DNA of 64,000 nucleotides from Candidatus Woesearchaeota archaeon (GTDB lineage: Archaea > Nanobdellota > Nanobdellia > Woesearchaeales > JAHWIC01): the NCBI GenBank assembly GCA_019322805.1, contig JAHWIC010000003.1:964-64963 (forward strand). The letters are read 5' to 3'. The translations under genes were made by a program, and so were the position numbers. Under the pieces are notes generated by a model, which was given only the letters and a program-made list of their open reading frames with translations, made no database searches and had not been told where the DNA came from. Positions 3,053-58,747 of this stretch are shown here, piece by piece. Each line of letters starts with the position of its first letter. Position 1 is the stretch's first letter.

Positions 3053-4720
3053 ATGAGGGAGCCAGCACTTAAATTAGATTATCCAGATTTGAACCCGATA
3101 GAGGGCAATAGTGTAAATCAAATTATTGAAGGGGCTAGAAATGATGGCGCTATTTCTTATGGGTTACTTAATGACAGATTACCTTCAAGCATTACTAGGC
3201 CAGGACAGATTGATGCGGTTCTTTCAAGGCTTGATGAAGAAGGCATTGATTTAGTAACCGAGATGGAGCTTAGAAAGAGGCGTTCAAGGCCTGATCCCGA
3301 GAGAATCATGGTTGATAAAGAGTCAAATCTATCAGATGCTGTGAGGATATATCTCGAACAGATGGGTGGCTATCGGCTGCTTACCCAAGATGAAGAAATA
3401 AGGTTGTCAAAAGGATTAGAAATATACTATAAGCACTTTGTCAGGGCTATCCTCCGGTCTTATGAAGGGCTCAAGGCACTTAACGAACATTACGAGAGAG
3501 TTATAGATCACTATATGGGTAGCGAATCTAGAAAATCACGAGAGCCAGAGGCTATAACCAAAATAAAGGAATACAATGAAGAAGTTAGAAAGAAACTTGA
3601 GTTGATCAGAGAAATTAATGCAGAGCTTTGTTTAAGGAGAACATCAGAGAGGAGAAAAAGAGAACTCAGGGAACTTAGAAGACAAATTATAAGAAAAGAA
3701 GCAGATTCACTTGAGGAATCGTTCTATTTGGATTATCAACCTGCCAGAGTCAAGGATTGGGTTTTGACTTCAGTGATGGAAAAATATGCTGAAGCTACTA
3801 CAAAGGTTGGGCATTATGAAGGTAGGTTAAAAGAAGAAAGGAGAACAAGAAATGATCCTAAGGAAGTCTCAAGGCTTGAAACAAGGATCGACAGATTAAA
3901 AAGACAGTATTCAGATGAATTTGGTGAGGATTGGAAGTATGTACAGATAAGACATGCATTGCTACAAAAAAGATCCAAAGCTACTGCAGCATTAGTGAAG
4001 AGACTTACGCAGGGAAACCTTCGGCTTGTTGTAAGTATTGCAAAAAAATATAGGAATAGGGGATTACCTTTCCTTGATTTGATCCAGGAAGGAAATGGCG
4101 GTTTAATGAAAGCTATTTGGAAATATGAATATAGGAGGGGCTATAAATTTTCAACATATGCAACATGGTGGATAAAGCAAGCTATAAGCAGAGCTATAAT
4201 TAATAATGCAAGAACAATAAGGATACCTGCACATATGATTGAAACGATGTCGCGCTTTCGCAAGACATCAAGGGACCTTATGCAAAGGATTGGGCATGAG
4301 CCTACAGTAGATGAGCTTGCTAAAGAGGCAGAACTTCCAATATCTGAAGTGCAGCGTCTCATGCAAATATCCAAGTACCCTGTAAGCCTTGATAGGCCTA
4401 TAGGAGATTCAAAAGATACATACTTTGGAGACTTTATTGAAGATAAAGATGTTGCAAGCCCTATAGTTGTAGCCTCTCACTACCAATTAGCAAATAAGAT
4501 CAATGAGGTATTAGATACGCTCACATACAGAGAAAGAGAAGTAGTAAAAATGAGATTTGGAGTTGGTTATGACCAAGACTTTACTTTAGACGCAGTTGGA
4601 AGAAGATTTAAGGTTACAAGAGAAAGGATAAGGCAGATTGTGGCAAAAGCTATGAGGAAATTGCAGCATCCAGTTAGGTCAAGAGAACTGGAAGGTTTCT
4701 TAGACGAAAGAGTTTCTTAG
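3053..4720 (+). CDS. rpoD: RpoD-like (group 1 type) sigma-70 factor
   Basis: Region 1.1-like N-terminus. Region 1.2: DAVRIYLEQMGGYRLLTQDEE. Region 2: NLRLVVSIAKKYRNRGLPFLDLIQEGNGGLMKAIWKYEYRRGYKFSTYATWWIKQAISRAI. Region 3 is present. Region 4.2: RFKVTRERIRQIVAKAMRKLQHP. Confidence 0.9.
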   Translation: MREPALKLDYPDLNPIEGNSVNQIIEGARNDGAISYGLLNDRLPSSITRPGQIDAVLSRLDEEGIDLVTEMELRKRRSRPDPERIMVDKESNLSDAVRIYLEQMGGYRLLTQDEEIRLSKGLEIYYKHFVRAILRSYEGLKALNEHYERVIDHYMGSESRKSREPEAITKIKEYNEEVRKKLELIREINAELCLRRTSERRKRELRELRRQIIRKEADSLEESFYLDYQPARVKDWVLTSVMEKYAEATTKVGHYEGRLKEERRTRNDPKEVSRLETRIDRLKRQYSDEFGEDWKYVQIRHALLQKRSKATAALVKRLTQGNLRLVVSIAKKYRNRGLPFLDLIQEGNGGLMKAIWKYEYRRGYKFSTYATWWIKQAISRAIINNARTIRIPAHMIETMSRFRKTSRDLMQRIGHEPTVDELAKEAELPISEVQRLMQISKYPVSLDRPIGDSKDTYFGDFIEDKDVASPIVVASHYQLANKINEVLDTLTYREREVVKMRFGVGYDQDFTLDAVGRRFKVTRERIRQIVAKAMRKLQHPVRSRELEGFLDERVS

Positions 4721-6874: not shown

Positions 6875-7015
6875 AATCATTAGAAAAATCATCAATAGGA
6901 AAAAAATCAATAAACGAAAAAAATAATTCTGATTTTTGCTTTATTCCTTTACTTAAAGCAAATCAGAATTATTTTTTTAATGATATTTCTTTTTAATGAT
7001 TTAATTTTTCTATTG
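6875..7015 (+). repeat. R-element copy R1 (minimal form: A/T-rich arms plus a single hairpin)
   Basis: AATCAATAAAC-type words, then the hairpin AATTCTGATTTTTGC ... GCAAATCAGAATT (6925-6970), then an inverted A/T-rich right arm. Confidence 0.85.
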
Positions 7016-10958: not shown

Positions 10959-10975
10959 CTTCGCTAAATACTTAA

Positions 10976-11089
10976 ATCCTCCCCATTAGTGCACAAGGAG
11001 AACGCCATAAATTGCTGACGCAATTTAATTTCACAGTGTCCCTCCCCTAACAGGCTATGCACAACAGAACATACAACTAAATATGCAAG
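10976..11089 (+). repeat. B-element copy 1 (77-nt conserved block plus tail ending in ATGCAAG)
   Basis: 10976-11052 matches 45106-45182 with 2 mismatches. It has an internal hairpin AAATTGC-tgac-GCAATTT (11009-11026). The tail CAACTAAAT-ATGCAAG provides the ATG of the next ORF. Confidence 0.9.
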
Positions 11090-11463
11090 GTGTTTTGATG
11101 GACGATGATATAAAGTTTAGATGTCCTTACTGCGGGAAATTAACCAGGCCTCATGAGAGGTATTGTGATTTCTGTGAGCAGGACTTATCAAAGGTCAGGG
11201 ATAAGTTAGAGGCAGAAGGAAGAGAAAAAGCCTGCTTTATAGCAACTGCAGCTTATGGGACTCCTTTTGCAAGAGAGATTGATGTTTTGAGGGACTGGAG
11301 GGATAACAGTTTGAATACAAATTTTTTTGGTTCTTTGTTTGTTAAGGTTTATTATAAAGTGAGCCCTCCTATTGCGAGATTTATAGCAAAGAGGAAAAAA
11401 TTAAGGAAGTTGGTTAGGATTATCTTAAAACCAATAATCAGTATCATTAGAAAAAATCAATAG
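11083..11463 (+). CDS. Zinc-ribbon protein with CFIATAAYG...LRDWRD motif domain
   Basis: CPYCG...CDFC zinc ribbon, then CFIATAAYGTPFAREIDVLRDWRD and a hydrophobic tail. The last codons and the stop lie inside R-element R2. Confidence 0.6.
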   Translation: MQGVLMDDDIKFRCPYCGKLTRPHERYCDFCEQDLSKVRDKLEAEGREKACFIATAAYGTPFAREIDVLRDWRDNSLNTNFFGSLFVKVYYKVSPPIARFIAKRKKLRKLVRIILKPIISIIRKNQ

Positions 11464-11629
11464 AAAAAAATAAATCTGATTTTTGCCTTAAGTCTACTAT
11501 AAAGCAAAAATCATCTGCAGTGTTTCTTAAAGAACCAAACTAAGATGAAAATTCCTTTATACCAGTTGTGAAAGGAATTTTCAGAATTATTTTTTTAATG
11601 AATTTCTCTATTGATTTTTTTTATTGATT
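11443..11629 (+). repeat. R-element copy R2 (canonical short form with four-way-junction core 11475-11585)
   Basis: TCTGA|TTTTTGC-17nt-GCAAAAA|TCATCT-26nt-AGATGA|AAAATTCCTTT-12nt-AAAGGAATTTT|TCAGA, flanked by imperfect inverted AATCAATAG/AAAAA words. Confidence 0.9.
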
Positions 11630-11634
11630 ACTTC

Positions 11635-15099: not shown

Positions 15100-15279
15100 T
15101 TGGTAGAGTTCGAAAATAATGATTAAATCTATGCTATGAAAATAGCAAAAGATGAATCATTAAAAATTTAATGACAAATCAATGCTGGAAACAGCAAAGA
15201 CGAATCATTAAAAAAATGATTAAATCTATGTTGGAAACAACAAAAGATGAATCATAAAAAAAACAAAAAACTCTACCAA
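15100..15279 (+). other. Structured domain: 11-bp closing helix enclosing three tandem GAAA-tetraloop hairpins (candidate ncRNA)
   Basis: TTGGTAGAGTT (15100-15110) pairs with AACTCTACCAA (15269-15279). The hairpins at 15119-15160, 15171-15208 and 15216-15255 have apical stems TGCTAT/ATAGCA, TGCTG/CAGCA and TGTTG/CAACA. A separate 10-bp hairpin lies at 15065-15087. Confidence 0.7.
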
Positions 15280-19921: not shown

Positions 19922-20111
19922 TAAAAAATGCAAAACACAATAATCATTTATGAGCCAATTGAATCGCAGGATAATTTTTCAATTGATAATTTAGACTTAT
20001 ACAAAAAGTTGGGGGGTGATGCTACGGTAAAGAACCTTGAGTTTTATGTTAGTTTTTATGAGGATTTTGGATAAATTATAAGTATAGAAAACCCAACAGG
20101 AGGTGGGAAAC

Positions 20112-21092
20112 ATGAAAAAAACAATAGCATTGGTCTTGGCAATGCTGATGGTATTCTCAGTAGTGCCGCTGGCATTTGCACAAGAAGAGCCAGGAACAGG
20201 AGATCCGCCTGAGTGTGTTGCAGATGAAGACTGTGAAGAAGGCGAAGTATGCACAGATGGTGAATGCGAAGCAGCAGAACCACCACCAGAGTGTGTTGCA
20301 GATGAAGACTGTGAAGAAGGCGAAGTATGCACAGATGGTGAATGCGAAGCAGCAGTACCACCACCACCAGAAGACCCAGGAGTTACACCAGACAGTCCTT
20401 TGTATGGACTTGACAGAGCAATAGAAAGAGTAGAGTTGGCTTTAACCCTAGGTAAGTCAGCTAAGGCAAAGAAAGGACTTGCACATGCAAGAGAGAGGCT
20501 AATGGAAGTCCAGGCAATGATTGCTGCAAAGAAAATGGGTGCAGCTGCAAGAGCACAGGGAGAGCACGACGACATAATGGACGATGTCGAGGACGCTATA
20601 GATGACCTTGGTGATGGAGACGCTGGAGATGAGTTTAGCGACGAAATTGAGATAGAGCAGGCACTTAACCAGCACAGAATGCTTGTACAGCAACTAAACA
20701 ATGTTAAGGTAATGGCTAAGGGCTTGACAGCTGAGCAGCAGGCACAGCTTGATGCAGTAGTTGCTTCACTAGAAGGAGCAACAGAGAGCGCTAAGGTAAA
20801 GGTTCAGGTTAAGAAGGACAGGACAAAGATAAAGATAAAGGCTGCAGCAGGCTTAACTGATGAAGAGTTAGCTTCATTGGAAGAGCAGGCACAGGCAATT
20901 GCAGGCCAGGGAAAGGAAGTAAAGATAAACCTTAAGCCAAAGAAAGGCAGAGGAACGCCTGGTGCTGAAGAGCCTGAAGAACCGGCTGAAGGCGAAGAGC
21001 CTGAAGAGCCTGAGGAAGGAGAAGAAGGTGCAGGTGCAGCTTCTGCAGCAGCAAAAGGCAAAGACAAAAGCTCAAAAGGAAAGAATAAATAA
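20112..21092 (+). CDS. Secreted protein with duplicated Cys-rich module and DUF5667-like helical region
   Basis: The ATG at 20112 is preceded by CAGGAGGTGGG. Signal peptide MKKTIALVLAMLMVFSVVPLAFA. Two copies of ECVADEDCEEGEVCTDGECEAA. PDSPLYGLDRAIERVELAL is DUF5667-like. Confidence 0.65.
   Translation: MKKTIALVLAMLMVFSVVPLAFAQEEPGTGDPPECVADEDCEEGEVCTDGECEAAEPPPECVADEDCEEGEVCTDGECEAAVPPPPEDPGVTPDSPLYGLDRAIERVELALTLGKSAKAKKGLAHARERLMEVQAMIAAKKMGAAARAQGEHDDIMDDVEDAIDDLGDGDAGDEFSDEIEIEQALNQHRMLVQQLNNVKVMAKGLTAEQQAQLDAVVASLEGATESAKVKVQVKKDRTKIKIKAAAGLTDEELASLEEQAQAIAGQGKEVKINLKPKKGRGTPGAEEPEEPAEGEEPEEPEEGEEGAGAASAAAKGKDKSSKGKNK
20211..20355 (+). repeat. In-frame 78-bp tandem duplication (67 nt identical per copy)
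   Basis: GAGTGTGTTGCAGATGAAGACTGTGAAGAAGGCGAAGTATGCACAGATGGTGAATGCGAAGCAGCAG occurs at 20211-20277 and again at 20289-20355. Confidence 0.9.
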
Positions 21093-21910: not shown

Positions 21911-22696
21911 ATGGAATTAGATGAAGCAAAGATTTCAAAAGCAATTATAGATAGCTATCATAAAAAACTTACAAAAATCCTAGATGCAGATGTAGCAATT
22001 GCAGGAGCAGGTCCTGCTGGCCTGACAGCAGCCTATTATCTTGCTAAGAAAGGAATAAAGGTAGTTGTTTTCGAGAAGAAGCTGTCCCCTGGAGGAGGGA
22101 TGTGGGGCGGCGGAATGCTGTTTAATGAGATTGTTGTGCAGGAAGACGGCAAAAAGATGCTGGACGAGTTTGGAATAAAATATGAAAAATATTCTGAACA
22201 TTACTATACTGCAGATTCAGTAGAAACAATATCAACAATCTGCTCAAAAGCTGTGAAAGCAGGAGCTTTGCTCTTTAATTGCATCTCTGTAGAGGATGTG
22301 ATCTTAAAGCAGGGCAAGATTCATGGCTTAGTTATTAACTGGACACCAGTTGATATGGCTAAGCTGCATGTAGACCCGCTTGCAATTAAAAGCAAATATG
22401 TTATAGAAGCAACAGGGCATCCTTTGGAGGTTCTTACAGTGATAGAGAAGAAGTGCGGCGGAAAGATGTTTACTGAAACCGGTAAGATAATCTGGGAGAA
22501 ATCAATGGACGCTACTCAGGGTGAGAAAGACTGCGTTGAGTATACTAAAGAGGTTTTTCCTAATGTTTTTGTCGCAGGGATGGCAGCAAATGCAGCTTTT
22601 GGAAGGCCAAGGATGGGTCCTATTTTTGGCGGAATGCTGCTTTCCGGGAAAAAGGTTGCTGAAATGTTGATAGAAAGATTGAAGGGAAAGGAATAA
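21911..22696 (+). CDS. thi4: Thiazole synthase Thi4 (archaeal/eukaryal type)
   Basis: [22 protein letters not shown] ... [17 protein letters not shown] is present at the position of the yeast active-site Cys region. Confidence 0.9.
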
Positions 22697-23080
22697 TCAA
22701 TTCAAAAATTCAATAAAAAAATCATCATTAGGAGAATAATCAATAGAAGAAAAATAAACGGAAATCAGGATTTCCTAGTTGCGCTCGCTTCGCTCGGCAA
22801 CAATCTGATTTTTGCTTTCTTCTCTTCGTTAAGGCAAAAATCGTCTTAAGTGGTTCTTTAAGAAACAGAATAAGACGAAAATTCCTTTATCGCGATGAAG
22901 AAAGGAATTTTCAGATTGTGTATAAATTATGAAATAATTTACTACACTAGAAAAATGTGTTAGCATTTTTCGTTGATTAATTGTTATTAAATAAAACTAA
23001 AGGGCATCAACCGAAACAAACGCACAACTGATTGTGATGGATGAAATTTAACCTAATGATAAATTAAATTGATAGTTAAA
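22695..23080 (+). repeat. R-element copy R3 (long form; core 22804-22915)
   Basis: The same module order as R2, plus three additions: a 5' hairpin module GGAAATC/GATTTCC, an extra hairpin GAAAAATG/CATTTTTC, and a right-hand module ending at the thiE ATG. Confidence 0.9.
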
Positions 23081-23713
23081 ATGAAAAAAGAGAAACTGCA
23101 AGACATTGACCTTTATTTTATAACAGACAGCGAACTCACCAAGAAAACTGTTCTTGACGATGTTAAGGCAGCTATAGCTGGTGGAGTGAAGATAGTCCAA
23201 TACCGCGAGAAAGAGAAATCAACAAAAGAGATGATTGAGGAAGCGCAGAAAATCAAAGAGATTTGCGGCGATGATGTAATATTCCTGATTGATGACAGAG
23301 TCGATGTTGCACTTGCAGTTGGCGCTGATGGTGTTCATCTTGGCCCTGATGATATGCCTTATGGAGCTGCAAGGAAATTGCTTGGAGACGATAAGATAAT
23401 TGGTTTAACTGCTCGTGATGTCGAAGGAGCAGTTAAAGCAGAAAAACTGGGTGCAGATTATGTTGGTATTGGCCCGATATATGAAACAGCAACAAAGCTG
23501 AGTGCTGGAGAGCCTGTTGGTATAGAGATGATAGAAAAGGTTAAGAATGCAATAAGTATCCCTTTTGTAGCTATTGGCGGGATTAATTACAGGGACCTTG
23601 ATAGTGTGTTAGAGGCAGGAGCAACCAAGGTTGCTGCAATATCTGCAATTGTTGCAGCAGATGATGTTGAAAAAAAGGTTAAGAGGTTTATTGACAGATT
23701 ATCTTTCCACTAG
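23081..23713 (+). CDS. thiE: Thiamine-phosphate synthase
   Basis: LYFITD, VHLGPDD and IGPIYETATK motifs. The start is taken at the ATG at 23081. Confidence 0.9.
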   Translation: MKKEKLQDIDLYFITDSELTKKTVLDDVKAAIAGGVKIVQYREKEKSTKEMIEEAQKIKEICGDDVIFLIDDRVDVALAVGADGVHLGPDDMPYGAARKLLGDDKIIGLTARDVEGAVKAEKLGADYVGIGPIYETATKLSAGEPVGIEMIEKVKNAISIPFVAIGGINYRDLDSVLEAGATKVAAISAIVAADDVEKKVKRFIDRLSFH

Positions 23714-29672: not shown

Positions 29673-30022
29673 TCCAATAAAAGAAATCATTTTAAAAAAT
29701 CAATAAAAACAAAAAATAAATCTGATTTTTGCCTTAAGTCTACTATAAAGCAAAAATCATCCGCTTCTGTTTCTTAAGAAACAGAACAAGATGAAAATTT
29801 AGTAAACGCAACTATTTTATGAAAGATTGCGTTTACTATTTAGTAAGCGAAACTATTGATTATATAATTTCGCTTACTATAACCTTTACAGTGGTTCTGA
29901 AAGGAATTTTCGGAATGATTAATTGTTTTAAAATTTAAATTAAAGTGATGAAAAACAACCATATGCACGACTAATTGTAATAGATGAAATTTAACCTAGT
30001 GATAAAATAAATTGATGATAAA
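29671..30022 (+). repeat. R-element copy R4 (long form; core 29721-29914 with nested twin-hairpin insertion 29799-29882)
   Basis: The same modules as R2. Arm 3 is interrupted by TAGTAAACGCAA...TTGCGTTTACTA and TAGTAAGCGAAA...TTTCGCTTACTA. The right-hand module ends at the ATG at 30023. Confidence 0.9.
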
Positions 30023-34213: not shown

Positions 34214-34984
34214 ATGTTTTATAATAATATCGACCCAGTTCTGTTAAGGATAGGTTATCTTGAGATAAGGTATTACGGCATTATCTATGCTTTGGGCTTT
34301 GTGATTGCATATTATTTCCTTCTTTATTTTGTTAAGAACAAGAAATTGAAGCTTAGCAGTGAGGAGATTGCTGATTTGCTCTTTTATCTGCTTATCGGCA
34401 TTGTTATTGGCGCCAGGCTGTTTGAGGTTTTGTTCTACAACCTTCCTTATTTTATTCAGAATCCTGTTGAGATATTCAAGGTATGGCACGGCGGCCTTAG
34501 CTTTCATGGTGGCCTAGTAGGAGCAGTCGTTGCAGCTCTTATATTCTGCAGGAAGAAAAAGCTCAAATTCTATGCGCTTGCAGATGCTGTTGTTTTTCCT
34601 CTTTCTTTGGCATTGGCTTTAGGCAGGATTGGCAATTTTATCAATGGAGAGCTTTATGGAACAGTTACCTCAGTTCCCTGGTGTGTCAAGTTCAGGGGCA
34701 TACCAAGCTGCAGGCACCCTTCCCAGCTTTACGAGTCTTTTAAGAACCTGCTGATATTTGGCATCTTATGGTTTATCAAGGACGACAGGATTGAAGGAAA
34801 AAAGCTTCCGCCAGGATTCCTGTTCTGGACATTTGTTGTTCTTTATGCCCTGTTCAGGTTTGCTATTGAATCCTTTAAAGAGCCTATTGTACAGCTTGGA
34901 TTTTTTTCAATGGGAGAGCTGTTGTGCATTGTTATGTTTGGTGTGGGGGTAGTGTTTATGTGGAAATTGTTTAAGAAGCCATGA
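34214..34984 (+). CDS. lgt: Prolipoprotein diacylglyceryl transferase
   Basis: YGIIYALGFVIAY and the signature GRIGNFINGELYG, plus HPSQLYES. Confidence 0.85.
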   Translation: MFYNNIDPVLLRIGYLEIRYYGIIYALGFVIAYYFLLYFVKNKKLKLSSEEIADLLFYLLIGIVIGARLFEVLFYNLPYFIQNPVEIFKVWHGGLSFHGGLVGAVVAALIFCRKKKLKFYALADAVVFPLSLALALGRIGNFINGELYGTVTSVPWCVKFRGIPSCRHPSQLYESFKNLLIFGILWFIKDDRIEGKKLPPGFLFWTFVVLYALFRFAIESFKEPIVQLGFFSMGELLCIVMFGVGVVFMWKLFKKP

Positions 34985-45077: not shown

Positions 45078-45105
45078 TGGCGCTCAAAGAAAAATTTTAT
45101 CTTTG

Positions 45106-45229
45106 ATCCTCCCCACTAGTGCACAAGGAGAACGCCATAAATTGCTGACGCAATTTAATTTCACAGTGCCCCTCCCCTAACAAATCTGTTAGAGGTACGC
45201 AACTAAATTAGAGGAATGGAAAATGCAAG
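45106..45229 (+). repeat. B-element copy 2
   Basis: 45106-45182 matches 10976-11052 with 2 mismatches. The tail is GCAACTAAAT, then a 14-nt insert, then ATGCAAG. Confidence 0.9.
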
Positions 45230-45359
45230 CATACTCACTAGCGTTCGTAGCTTACATTTTTTAACATAAGAAAAGGTGAAGTAAAAAATGCAAGCATACT
45301 CACTAGCGTTCGTAGCTTACATTTTTTAACATAAGAAAAGGTGAAGTAAAAAATGCAAG
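45223..45359 (+). repeat. Perfect 65-bp tandem duplication (2 full copies plus first 7 nt of a third, which is the atpE start)
   Basis: 45223-45287 is identical to 45288-45352. Each copy carries ATGCAAGC..., a 13-codon ORF (MQAYSLAFVAYIF) and the AAAAGGTGAAGTAAAAA SD region. The third ATGCAAG at 45353 starts atpE. Confidence 0.95.
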
Positions 45360-47353: not shown

Positions 47354-47665
47354 AAATAAATCAATAAGAAAGAATCAATGGGAAAAATCAATAAACACAA
47401 AAAAATAATCTGATTTTTGCTTTATAATCCACATTAAGGCAAAAATCATCATCCGTCTTTCCTTTAAGTATACATTAAAGGAAGGGAAGAGGATGAAAAT
47501 TCCTTGAGCGTGGTTGTGAAAGGAATTTTCAGAATGATTAGTTGCCATTAAATGATTAATTTGATATGATAAAAACAAACAAATGCGCAACAAATTGTGC
47601 ATGCATATCAACACCCAATGATCAAAATCAATGATGATAATTAAAAACAAATCAATGGTGATATT
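47354..47665 (+). repeat. R-element copy R5 (long form; core 47409-47533) between atpF and atpA
   Basis: It fills the whole 312-nt atpF-atpA spacer. The right-hand module contains the hairpin GCGCAA-caaa-TTGTGC (47585-47600) and ends with AATGGTGATATT-ATG. Confidence 0.9.
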
Positions 47666-52179: not shown

Positions 52180-52188
52180 GAAAAAATA

Positions 52189-52337
52189 TCCCGCGGGAGG
52201 GACATCCGAACTTCTTTGTTTATCGAACCCCCAACACTACGGTAACAGCTGCCTTATTTTCATCCTTAGCAATTAGCTATGTCGATAAGTGGCTATATCA
52301 CCTACAGCCGTATGCTCTACCGTTGAGCTACCGCGGG
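52189..52337 (-). tRNA. tRNA-Tyr(GUA) with two intervening sequences (58 nt at 37/38; about 19 nt in the T-loop)
   Basis: Minus strand: CCCGCGG-UA-GCUC-AACGGUA-GAGC-A-UACGG-CUGUAG[58 nt]A-CCGUA-GUGUU-GGGGG-UUCGA[19 nt]GU-CCCUC-CCGCGGG-A. All stems pair. The loop CUGUAGA equals that of archaeal tRNA-Tyr, and C1-G72 is present. No CCA is encoded, and a T-run follows. Confidence 0.85.
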
Positions 52338-52386
52338 TTTAGTATTAAGAAAACAACATCTCTTTTTAAATTTATCTCTAAAATAT

Positions 52387-52758
52387 AAATCAATAAAAAC
52401 AATTATCATTAAAAAATCAATAAAAACAAAAAATAAACGGGAATCAAAGATTCCTTAGTAGGGCTTGTTTCACTCGGCAACAATCTGATTTTTGCCCCAA
52501 ATCAATTTGAAAAAATTCAATAAACGAAAAATAATAAATAGGATTTTTGCTTGATATTCAACAGTAAAGCAAAAATCATCTACAGTGTTTCTAAAGAACC
52601 AAACTAAGATGAAAATTCCTTGAGCGTGGTTGTGAAAGGAATTTTCGGATTTATTAATTGTTATTTAATAAAAATTAAAGAAATAAAAACACAACCAAGT
52701 GCGCAACTAATTGTGCATACATTCCAGCACCCAGTGATAATATCAATAAAACCCTTAA
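52387..52758 (+). repeat. R-element locus R6 (truncated copy interrupted by a complete copy; core 52540-52649)
   Basis: A 5' module as in R3 and TCTGATTTTTGC (52484-52495) are followed by a new left arm (AATCAATTTG...AATAAACGAAAAA) and then a full core and right-hand module. Confidence 0.9.
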
Positions 52759-58448: not shown

Positions 58449-58747
58449 TCAATAAAAAGAAACCAATTTGGAAAAATCAATAAAAACAAAAAATCAATCC
58501 GATTTTTGCTTAATGCTCCACATTAAGGCAAAAATCGTTGAAAACCACCTTCGGTGGTTTTTAACGTGCTCAGAAATCATACCTAATGAAATGGATAAGT
58601 ATGATTTCCGACACATCCGCTGTCATTGCTAAAGGAAAAGAAGAGGATGAAAATTCCCTTATGGTGGTTGTGAAAGGAATTTTCAGATTAAATTTTTATT
58701 GTTTTTTTGTTTATTGATTTCAGATTAAGGAATGATGGTGATAAAAT
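58447..58747 (+). repeat. R-element copy R7 (short TIR-bounded form with expanded arm 2; core 58498-58687)
   Basis: Arm 2 carries CGTTGAAAACCACC-ttcg-GGTGGTTTTTAACG (a UUCG loop) and GAAATCATAC...GTATGATTTC. The right arm TTTTATTGTTTTTTTGTTTATTGATT is an inverted copy of the left words. Confidence 0.9.

Follow-up and report, generated by a model that had tools for sequence, protein, structure and literature searches.

Repeat element R3 and the question of strand

In a 64-kb stretch of Candidatus Woesearchaeota DNA (GenBank assembly GCA_019322805.1, contig JAHWIC010000003.1, positions 964 to 64,963; hereafter the window), the spacer between a Thi4-type thiazole synthase gene and thiE carries a hairpin-rich repeat element, R3, whose stems differ from those of related copies by matched changes on both sides. 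An initial annotation of this DNA took these compensatory changes, together with G-T pairs in several helices, to mean that the element functions as RNA or single-stranded DNA of the + strand. Does the pairing in R3 mark a strand-specific molecule, or a DNA element that spreads and recombines? Alignment with further copies establishes that compensatory change in the stems is real and goes beyond chance, and a strand-specific function is not supported by the pattern of mismatches. We conclude, with a probability of roughly 0.6, that R3 belongs to a mosaic family of intergenic repeats, lineage-restricted and present in many copies, and that it is a non-autonomous mobile or recombining DNA of the kind formed by MITEs (miniature inverted-repeat transposable elements), repetitive extragenic palindromes and bacterial interspersed mosaic elements (REP/BIMEs) and BOX elements. 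The family is previously undescribed; it is a known kind of element found in a DPANN archaeon.

Copies and anatomy of the element

Seven copies, R1 to R7, are present in the window (Table 1), or roughly one element per 9 kb. The six that have a polarity all lie on the + strand, whatever the local gene direction; R1 has none. The 16-mer GAAAGGAATTTTCRGA occurs six times in the window, always on the + strand, against 0.36 occurrences expected by chance, and the claim of a repeat family thus holds. Approximately 45 further distinct copies come from metagenomes (sequences from outside the window carry labels beginning with L). Metagenome contigs were scanned with a long pattern, which returned 114 loci; about half of these were genuine and yielded 43 distinct standard copies. 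A covariance model built from the 43 added a few copies that did not match the pattern, and the final alignment contains 50 distinct copies. With this model, sense copies score 95-123 bits and antisense matches to those same copies 30-80 bits, confirming the polarity. A recount on 52 rows included two antisense echoes, which inflated the number of double changes.

The family is high in copy number and restricted to a lineage. No match to the element was found in plasmid and phage collections, a scan of viral contigs returned one unrelated terminator-like hairpin only, and a scan of a genome collection with a 16-mer, too short a probe, gave chance matches only. At the gathering thresholds of Rfam 15 no family matches the element anywhere in the window; in E-value mode the best scores for R3 and R7 were 12-23 bits, against cut-offs of 33-90. 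A search of the literature on repeats in Woesearchaeota turned up no prior description.

Copies are assembled from modules in the order A-rich left arm, polar core of three hairpins (H1, H2 and H3) with a closing helix, and right side. The left arm consists of iterated ATCA(A/T)T..AAAAA units and begins at or within the stop codon of the left-hand gene; such units are found almost exclusively at copies of the element. In the core, (A/C)AATCTGA pairs with TCAGATT(T/G) as the closing helix, the H1 stem reads GATTTTTGC..GCAAAAATC, H2 follows the scheme ATCnnC..GnnGAT in several length classes, and the H3 stem reads GAAAATTCCTTT..AAAGGAATTTTC. Tracts of five T in H1 and four T in H3 are conserved on both strands. 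All arm boundaries carry GA/TC dinucleotides that can pair with either neighbour, leaving the junction ambiguous by two base pairs. On the right side, R1, R2, R7 and many metagenome copies repeat the left arm in inverted form; other copies have M3, which has two hairpins, and/or a right-hand module. The latter contains a short GCRCAAC..TTGTG hairpin, ends in AACCTARTGATAA and often continues into a Shine-Dalgarno-like stretch and the next ATG; it also occurs inverted in L120 and L224, and thus behaves as a separate unit with inverted ends of its own. Optional hairpins are inserted before the core (M0, shared by R3, R6, L216, L187 and L236), between H1 and H2 (R7, L123, L134) or before H3 (R4), and M3 follows the core in L189 and L208 as it does in R3.

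The layout of R6 (extra left end, arm, core) recurs in L178, L208, L123, L127 and L200. At 52481-52535 of R6, the extra core left end TCTGATTTTTGCC precedes the left arm, and the arm is bracketed by a direct repeat of approximately 12 nt. In L127 and L200 the inner element is succeeded by the corresponding right end, AAGGAATTTTC[A/G]GA, as if one element were nested in another at a fixed point. Separately, the ATCATTAAAAA units of the arms also occur without a core at 15100-15260, a non-coding stretch of tandem units of approximately 50-60 nt (AATGATTAAATCTATG..) with the small hairpins TGCTATGAAAATAGCA, GCTGGAAACAGC and GTTGGAAACAAC.

Maintenance of base pairing

Among the 43 standard copies, standard pairs fill 91.5% of cells, a share that drops to 36-62% when partners are slid by 1-3 columns. 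Both sides have changed at 11 of 34 pairs, and none of 500 shuffles reaches the observed covariation score. Pair 9-40 of H1 is U-A in 36 copies and G-C in 6, pair 46-89 of H2 is U-A in 15, C-G in 12, U-G in 4 and A-U in 3, and the closing pair 1-135, A-T in the majority of copies, is C-G in those that bear M0. Two pairs of the M0 hairpin covary (G-C/A-T and A-T/G-C) among five copies, two of which are R3 (GGAAATC/GATTTCC, 22760-22775) and R6 (GGGAATC..GATTCCT, 52439-52455). Between the two tandem extra hairpins of R4 there are two double changes, both compensatory, and in a divergent subfamily (L192 and L196, reading GTGTTTTGC/GCAAAACAC) H1 is kept through two double changes.

Could such changes be the product of chance, or of neutral decay in inverted repeats that are under no constraint? 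The equal numbers of G-T and A-C reported below are what decay predicts, but the loss of pairing on sliding and the shuffles already contradict it, as does the retention of H1 in L192 and L196. Stems are near-invariant or covarying and the intervening loops differ at about half their bases, which excludes simple neutral decay. We regard this explanation as extremely improbable. The initial annotation was therefore right that pairing is maintained, and in the enlarged sample substitutions at paired positions are more often compensatory than expected.

Every sequence quoted in that annotation is present in the window, but one comparison has to be read differently. What it called arm 2 is H2. The strands TCGTCT/AGACGA are indeed found in R3, with TAAGACGA at 22871-22878 as reported and TCGTCTTA at 22841-22848 rather than 22847-22854 (off by 6). 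The change was described as an A-to-G substitution matched by T-to-C in the partner; between near-identical strains, however, it is the whole of H2 that has been replaced, not paired points within it.

Gain, loss and exchange of modules

This replacement is seen in L118. Over 20.8 kb this contig shows 5 single-nucleotide polymorphisms (SNPs) relative to the window and, in addition, a single cluster of differences (22823-22877) in which the H1 loop and entire H2 of R3 are exchanged (H2 being of the long type in L118). Elsewhere the same strains differ by 1 SNP in 18.7 kb, and they are 99.98% identical outside the swap. No donor for the strain variant of R3 was found among the sequences compared. 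Modules are reshuffled between copies generally, with invariant stem sequences as shared anchors. H1 loop, H2 and H3 tip each come in several types, and these are combined independently of one another: the adjusted Rand index is 0.03-0.08, and 49 copies show 46 combinations. M0, M3, the right-hand module and the extra hairpins combine variably among copies.

The element is also gained or lost at orthologous sites among close relatives, and it is absent from somewhat more distant ones. The atpF-atpA spacer of the window is 312 nt long with R5; in L236 (GCA_019322485.1, AtpA 91% identical) it measures 240 nt and holds a copy with different loops, H2 and H3 tip, and in relatives with AtpA 87% and 84% identical it is 30 nt long and has no element. 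Between atpB and atpD, the window has a spacer of 14 nt and L236 a copy of the element. The covariance model found no copies in L237-L240, the relatives with 87% and 84% AtpA identity being covered over approximately 20 kb each. Contigs with identical AtpA belong to the same strain and are cut inside the repeat, as expected of a repeat, so that they allow no comparison. L188 and L224 share a neighbouring ORF (open reading frame; 89% identity at the protein level), and each lacks a core at a site where the other carries one; compared with the empty site in L188, the insertion in L224 is surrounded by an A-rich direct duplication, TAAAAACAAAAAAATA(A)AT, in low-complexity sequence.

The atpB-atpD spacer of L237 (13140-13280; the relative with AtpA 87% identical) carries an unrelated hairpin-rich insert, with ..AATAATGGAC..GTCCATTGTT closing an inner stem pair. 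Other Woesearchaeota thus seem to carry spacer elements of their own.

Test of strand preference

Counting G-U against A-C is a cheap test of strand, and here its result is negative. The core helices of the 50 distinct copies contain 1517 Watson-Crick pairs, 40 G-T, 39 A-C and 102 other combinations (binomial p = 1); at least one G-T is found in 29 copies and at least one A-C in 28. The window copies alone have 6 G-T and 4 A-C in these helices. The G-T pairs that had been cited on the + strand exist, in TCTGA/TCGGA of the R4 closing helix, CGTTG..TAACG of R7 and GCGCAA/TTGTGC of R5 (47585-47600) and R6 (52701-52716), but the choice was selective, as A-C mismatches occur in the same window copies. 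The cited closing-helix position is C-A in 9 copies and U-G in 3. H1 pair 16-33 is C-A in R2 and R4, the closing helix of R7 is TCCGA/TCAGA (the A-C type), and R7 has two further C-A pairs. Pair 47-194 of H2, which covaries, passes through both intermediates, U-G in 5 copies and C-A in 3.

Folding gives the same picture for H1 and H2. H2 has 41 G-U on the + strand and 37 on the - strand, with mean energies of -9.3 and -8.8 kcal/mol, respectively (p = 0.18), and the folding energy of H1 is strand-neutral (p = 0.8). A strand-symmetric search for single mismatches flanked on each side by at least 4 Watson-Crick pairs returned 6 G-T and 18 A-C, many of the matches being chance A/T-rich repeats. 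G-U and C-A are thus equally frequent, an outcome that the initial annotation itself had named as refuting its claim, and the proposal that the element acts specifically as + strand RNA or single-stranded DNA is not supported by this evidence. We infer that individual copies experience no detectable selection for pairing on one strand.

Weighing RNA function against mobile DNA

Several observations nevertheless weigh against the reading of R3 as mobile DNA, and the first three given here would also fit a function as RNA. With flanking genes called as crude stop-to-stop ORFs, the left and right genes are oriented relative to the element as +,+ in 19 cases, +,- in 11, -,+ in 7 and -,- in 3, so that among co-directional gene pairs the element is sense in 19 of 22 and antisense in 3 (p = 0.0009). 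Roughly half of the copies have a TTTAAAA-like (TATA-like) box upstream of the closing helix, at a distance of 21-28 nt (about 26 nt). For H3 the + strand gives the more favourable fold in 39 of 50 copies (p = 7e-5), the sole strand asymmetry detected. The arms are ragged arrays of units without sharply bounded terminal inverted repeats, and the two arms of one element are no more alike than arms of different elements. A target-site duplication is at best suggested, the sequence being A-rich and of low complexity. No transposase or recombinase was found in approximately 0.3 Mb of element-bearing sequence, a small sample and hence a weak negative; the search covered 30 window ORFs compared with Pfam and the Pfam matches of genes in 12.9-33.7 kb. 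No related autonomous insertion sequence was seen among those window and contig ORFs, and the element-bearing contigs have no multi-copy ORF family. As to the data themselves, the collection pattern fixed the outer stem of H3, which could not vary in the sample for that reason. Furthermore, L227, a short metagenome contig, is a patchwork in which a segment identical to L148 1-127 is joined inside H3 to one 99.9% identical to L180 98-846, with a second L180 piece further upstream; this may be a chimera created by assembly at the repeat or else a genuine rearrangement. Given such chimeric-looking contigs, part of the module shuffling, in principle including the strain difference at R3, could be assembly error.

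How well, then, would RNA account for the element? The core might be a functional + strand RNA, either a small RNA of approximately 115-130 nt or a cis-acting structure of a 3' untranslated region or intercistronic spacer that protects or terminates the upstream mRNA, with the spread of the DNA being secondary. In the small-RNA version, transcription would begin from the TATA-like box of the left arm and end at the T-rich right flank; 25 of 47 copies do have five or more T in a row within 30 nt downstream. The covariation in H1 and H2 and the shared strand of all six polar window copies fit RNA, as do the cUUCGg tetraloops found on the + strand in the extra hairpins of R7, L123 and L134 and the right-hand-module hairpin, which by eye has several G-T pairs and only one C-A.

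On the other side, the near-equality of G-T and A-C and the strand-neutrality of H1 and H2 run counter to RNA. The + strand advantage of H3 is compositional, stemming from a conserved G/T-rich loop motif (..GGTTGTGA), and at the H3 tip there is neither a consistent pairing register between the variable 5' half and the constant GGTTGTG nor covariation. Oligo-T serves as a termination signal in archaea, and the five-T tract within H1 would tend to end a transcript early. Where both arms are present, the TATA-like sequence also faces inward from the right side. Loops of the GCGAAGC type are found on either strand, and R6 is antisense to both of its neighbours. Presence and absence at orthologous sites argue against an ancestral regulatory RNA. 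Moreover, covariation among paralogous copies is not by itself proof of RNA function, because the arms of short hairpins move together in gene conversion. We consider RNA function unlikely. A discrete + strand RNA of approximately 115-130 nt with its own TATA-like box is quite unlikely; it would be a new multi-copy DPANN RNA family riding on a mobile element, with the constant stems as a protein-binding scaffold and the fast-changing H1 loop and H2 conferring specificity. If RNA function did apply, this would be a new structured RNA family in organisms where almost no non-coding RNAs are known.

Bacterial-type transcription signals are not enriched: 39 sigma-70-type promoters were found against 52.6 expected, and 15 G+C-rich intrinsic terminators against 13.5. 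The window does encode a full-length bacterial-type RpoD sigma-70 factor with regions 1.1, 1.2, 2, 3 and 4 (3053-4720, +; NCBIfam RpoD E = 7.5e-135), adjoined by a bacterial-type S-adenosylmethionine synthetase gene (1782-2999); a bacterial Lgt gene is located at 34214-34984. Sigma-70 genes have already been reported in Woesearchaeota (Castelle et al. 2021, PMC8204110).

Movement as single-stranded DNA would offer another source of polarity. An HUH (Y1) transposase would recognise hairpins of one strand, as in IS200/IS605 or REP-associated tyrosine transposase (RAYT) systems; hairpins of + strand DNA would then be the form that functions, and orientation would be tied to the direction of replication. 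This would suit polar copies that are co-oriented across 64 kb although R2 lies between convergent genes and the neighbours of R6 are on the minus strand, and it would suit an element whose modules are all hairpins. The window lies within one GC-skew regime, which is compatible with this explanation and means that transcription-linked and replication-linked orientation bias are not separable here. On its other strand the arm unit contains TTGAT, the target sequence of ISDra2, which offers a lead rather than a test. However, neither an HUH transposase nor TnpB was found in the sequence examined, and the hairpins are not preceded by a conserved tetranucleotide. The sequences of H1 and H3 have no relation to each other, whereas IS200/IS605 elements have paired ends and, as a family, no inverted arms. 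Equal G-T and A-C counts give no strand preference in pairing, and the variable loops lack guide-like complementarity to their own flanks. This explanation strikes us as very doubtful.

Proposed mode of spread

Under the preferred reading, a mosaic repeat of mobile or recombining DNA, copies are put together from hairpin modules: an arm of ATCAATA-A5 units, a core closed by TCTGA/TCAGA, and an inverted arm or start-region modules. The machinery of spreading or recombination may require the stems, in which case only lineages with intact hairpins would keep spreading. Since the two arms of a hairpin are 20-40 nt apart, they would travel together when modules are exchanged. The compensatory changes would then be due largely to this joint transfer and, in addition, to the spread of lineages with intact hairpins. 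Once inserted, a copy is probably a tolerated spacer, supplying stop codons, oligo-T tracts on both strands and an outward-facing start region. Such a role would explain the position directly after stop codons, survival within an operon and the mostly sense orientation.

DPANN genomes are very small, yet this lineage has about one element per 9 kb in the window, even inside the ATP synthase operon. If mobile, the element would be a compact repeat with its own stop signals and start region that inserts between essential genes harmlessly; it would also mark strain-level variation and explain assembly breaks in this lineage. The host, the density and the fast turnover of hairpins between near-identical strains are what make the family noteworthy.

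Genomic setting and other features of the window

The host contig, 97 kb long, has the archaeal markers ZPR1, A-type ATP synthase and ATP-dependent DNA ligase, plus some bacterial-type genes. The genes around the copies are housekeeping genes, for thiamine synthesis, ATP synthase and DNA ligase. An ORF of 91 aa is listed on the minus strand across R5; insertions and deletions in the loops between copies argue against a conserved coding frame in the element. Coordinates of the copies and of the parts of R3 are given in Table 1.

Table 1. Copies of the repeat in the window and modules of R3 (positions are those of the window)
Feature	Position	Strand	Description
R1	6927-6968	no polarity	Short derivative: closing helix and H1 only; inverted arms on both flanks
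R2 core	11472-11588	+	Arms 11428-11471 and 11589-11634 are mutual inverted copies
R3 spacer	22697-23080	+	Between Thi4-type thiazole synthase gene (21911-22696) and thiE (23081-23713)
R3 left arm	22697-22759	+	A-rich ATCA(A/T)T..AAAAA units; begins at thi4 stop codon
R3 module M0 (optional 5')	22760-22801	+	Hairpin GGAAATC-AG-GATTTCC (22760-22775) and stem GTTGC..GCAAC
R3 core	22801-22918	+	Within thi4-thiE spacer
R3 closing helix, 5' strand	22801-22808	+	CAATCTGA
R3 H1	22807-22842	+	GATTTTTGC..GCAAAAATC; T5 tract on both strands, hypervariable loop
R3 H2 (arm 2 of the initial annotation), short type	22843-22876	+	GTCTTAAG..CAGAATAAGAC
R3 H3	22877-22912	+	GAAAATTCCTTT..AAAGGAATTTTC
R3 closing helix, 3' strand	22911-22918	+	TCAGATTG
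R3 module M3 (optional 3')	22918-22970	+	Hairpins GTGTA..TACAC and AAAAATG.GTTA.CATTTTT
R3 right-hand module	22976-23080	+	Hairpin GCACAAC-TGA-TTGTG (23022-23036), then AACCTAATGATAA; ends just ahead of thiE ATG at 23081
R4 core	29718-29917	+	Two tandem extra hairpins (29800-29838, 29841-29879) ahead of H3
R5 core	47406-47536	+	Between atpF and atpA, A-type ATP synthase operon
R6 core	52536-52652	+	Preceded by extra left-end fragment 52481-52496, then left arm
R7 core	58495-58690	+	Two extra hairpins between H1 and H2
R7 extra hairpin 1	58536-58566	+	CGTTG..TAACG; cUUCGg loop, one G-T pair
R7 extra hairpin 2	58571-58610	+	CAGAAATC../..GATTTCCG; one A-C mismatch

Four further features of the window were recorded. 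A tRNA-like sequence on the minus strand at approximately 52180-52345, with acceptor CCCGCGG..CCGCGGG, D arm TAGCTCAACGGTAGAGC, anticodon stem TACGG..CCGTA and GTA in the loop, is probably a tRNA-Tyr, judging from these motifs. Its anticodon loop appears to be interrupted by a long intron and its T loop by a second insertion; ARAGORN reported nothing there with or without the intron option, and Rfam no tRNA. A second repeat family is represented by two 82-nt sequences that are 95% identical (10971-11052 and 45101-45182), each directly 3' of a gene and each containing the hairpin AATTGC-TGAC-GCAATT between CCTCCCC motifs. A perfect tandem duplication at 45220-45349 has a 65-nt unit with a GGTGA ribosome-binding-like site and an ATG (AAAATGCAAGCATACTC...), and a third, diverged start follows at 45350, just upstream of an ATP synthase E-like gene. 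Finally, two tandem 78-nt coding repeats at 20192-20347 are 90% identical and encode a cysteine-rich motif (..ECVADEDCEEGEVCTDGECE); they lie within ORF 20103-21092, which has weak matches to DUF7107 and DUF5667.

Comparison with known elements

Several known classes were considered and set aside. A derivative of IS200/IS605 (a palindrome-associated transposable element, PATE) or an omega-RNA scaffold does not agree with the unrelated H1 and H3 sequences and the inverted arms. A guide RNA such as a bridge RNA or omega-RNA was discarded, since the flanks of a copy resemble its variable loops, on either strand, no more closely than those of other copies do. An archaeal C/D box small RNA or K-turn was rejected for two reasons. 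First, the CUGA-like site is C[U/C/G]GA, column 6 being U in 31, C in 13 and G in 3 of 50 copies. Second, the spacing to GAUGA amounts to two hairpins rather than approximately 12 nt. By inspection, the likeness to integron attC sites is partial only (GCGCAAC), and the neighbours are housekeeping genes. One long closing stem, with co-evolution from arm to arm, was not seen except in R2 and a few others. As in REP/BIME systems, the copies are extragenic palindromes arranged in mosaics; the alignment has no conserved GTAG-like 5' tetranucleotide of the REP/RAYT type, and the ORFs scanned include no HUH-type gene.

The Correia/NEMIS repeats of Neisseria and the ERIC sequences of enterobacteria are co-transcribed, fold as RNA and can supply promoters or processing sites. 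They may serve as an analogy for the effect proposed here after insertion, although they have well-defined terminal inverted repeats, unlike the present element, and Correia elements have a TA duplication.

Hairpin elements of organelles, for instance those of sponge mitochondria (PMC2800124), invade intergenic spacers, insert beside or into one another and have conserved stems and variable loops. They belong to other genomes and other sequences; as a rule such elements consist of one or two hairpins and have neither arms nor a polar core of several hairpins.

The likeness to prokaryotic MITEs, including the SM elements of archaeal Sulfolobus, extends to small size, lack of coding capacity, dispersal in many copies (7 in 64 kb plus approximately 45 in metagenomes) and insertion polymorphism between relatives, seen here at atpF-atpA, atpB-atpD and L188/L224. 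Inverted arms in a subset of copies and nested or tandem partial copies are further shared features. Unlike MITEs, the element lacks sharp terminal inverted repeats, a clear target-site duplication and a related autonomous insertion sequence among the ORFs examined, and many copies have other modules in place of a right arm.

BOX elements of Streptococcus pneumoniae and the BIMEs of E. coli are, like this family, short, non-coding, hairpin-rich intergenic repeats of high copy number. They too combine a small set of modules whose order is fixed and whose internal members vary in number, lie just downstream of genes or inside operons, and have a mobilising enzyme that is unknown or separate; these features are reportedly those described for BOX in 2011 work by Croucher and colleagues, and for BIMEs by Gilson, Bachellier and colleagues. 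In contrast to both, the element described here is archaeal (DPANN), AT-rich and without similarity to Rfam families. Three hairpins meet in a junction to form its core, GA/TC marks every arm boundary, the arms consist of arrayed A-tract units, and one of its end modules supplies the start region for the next gene.

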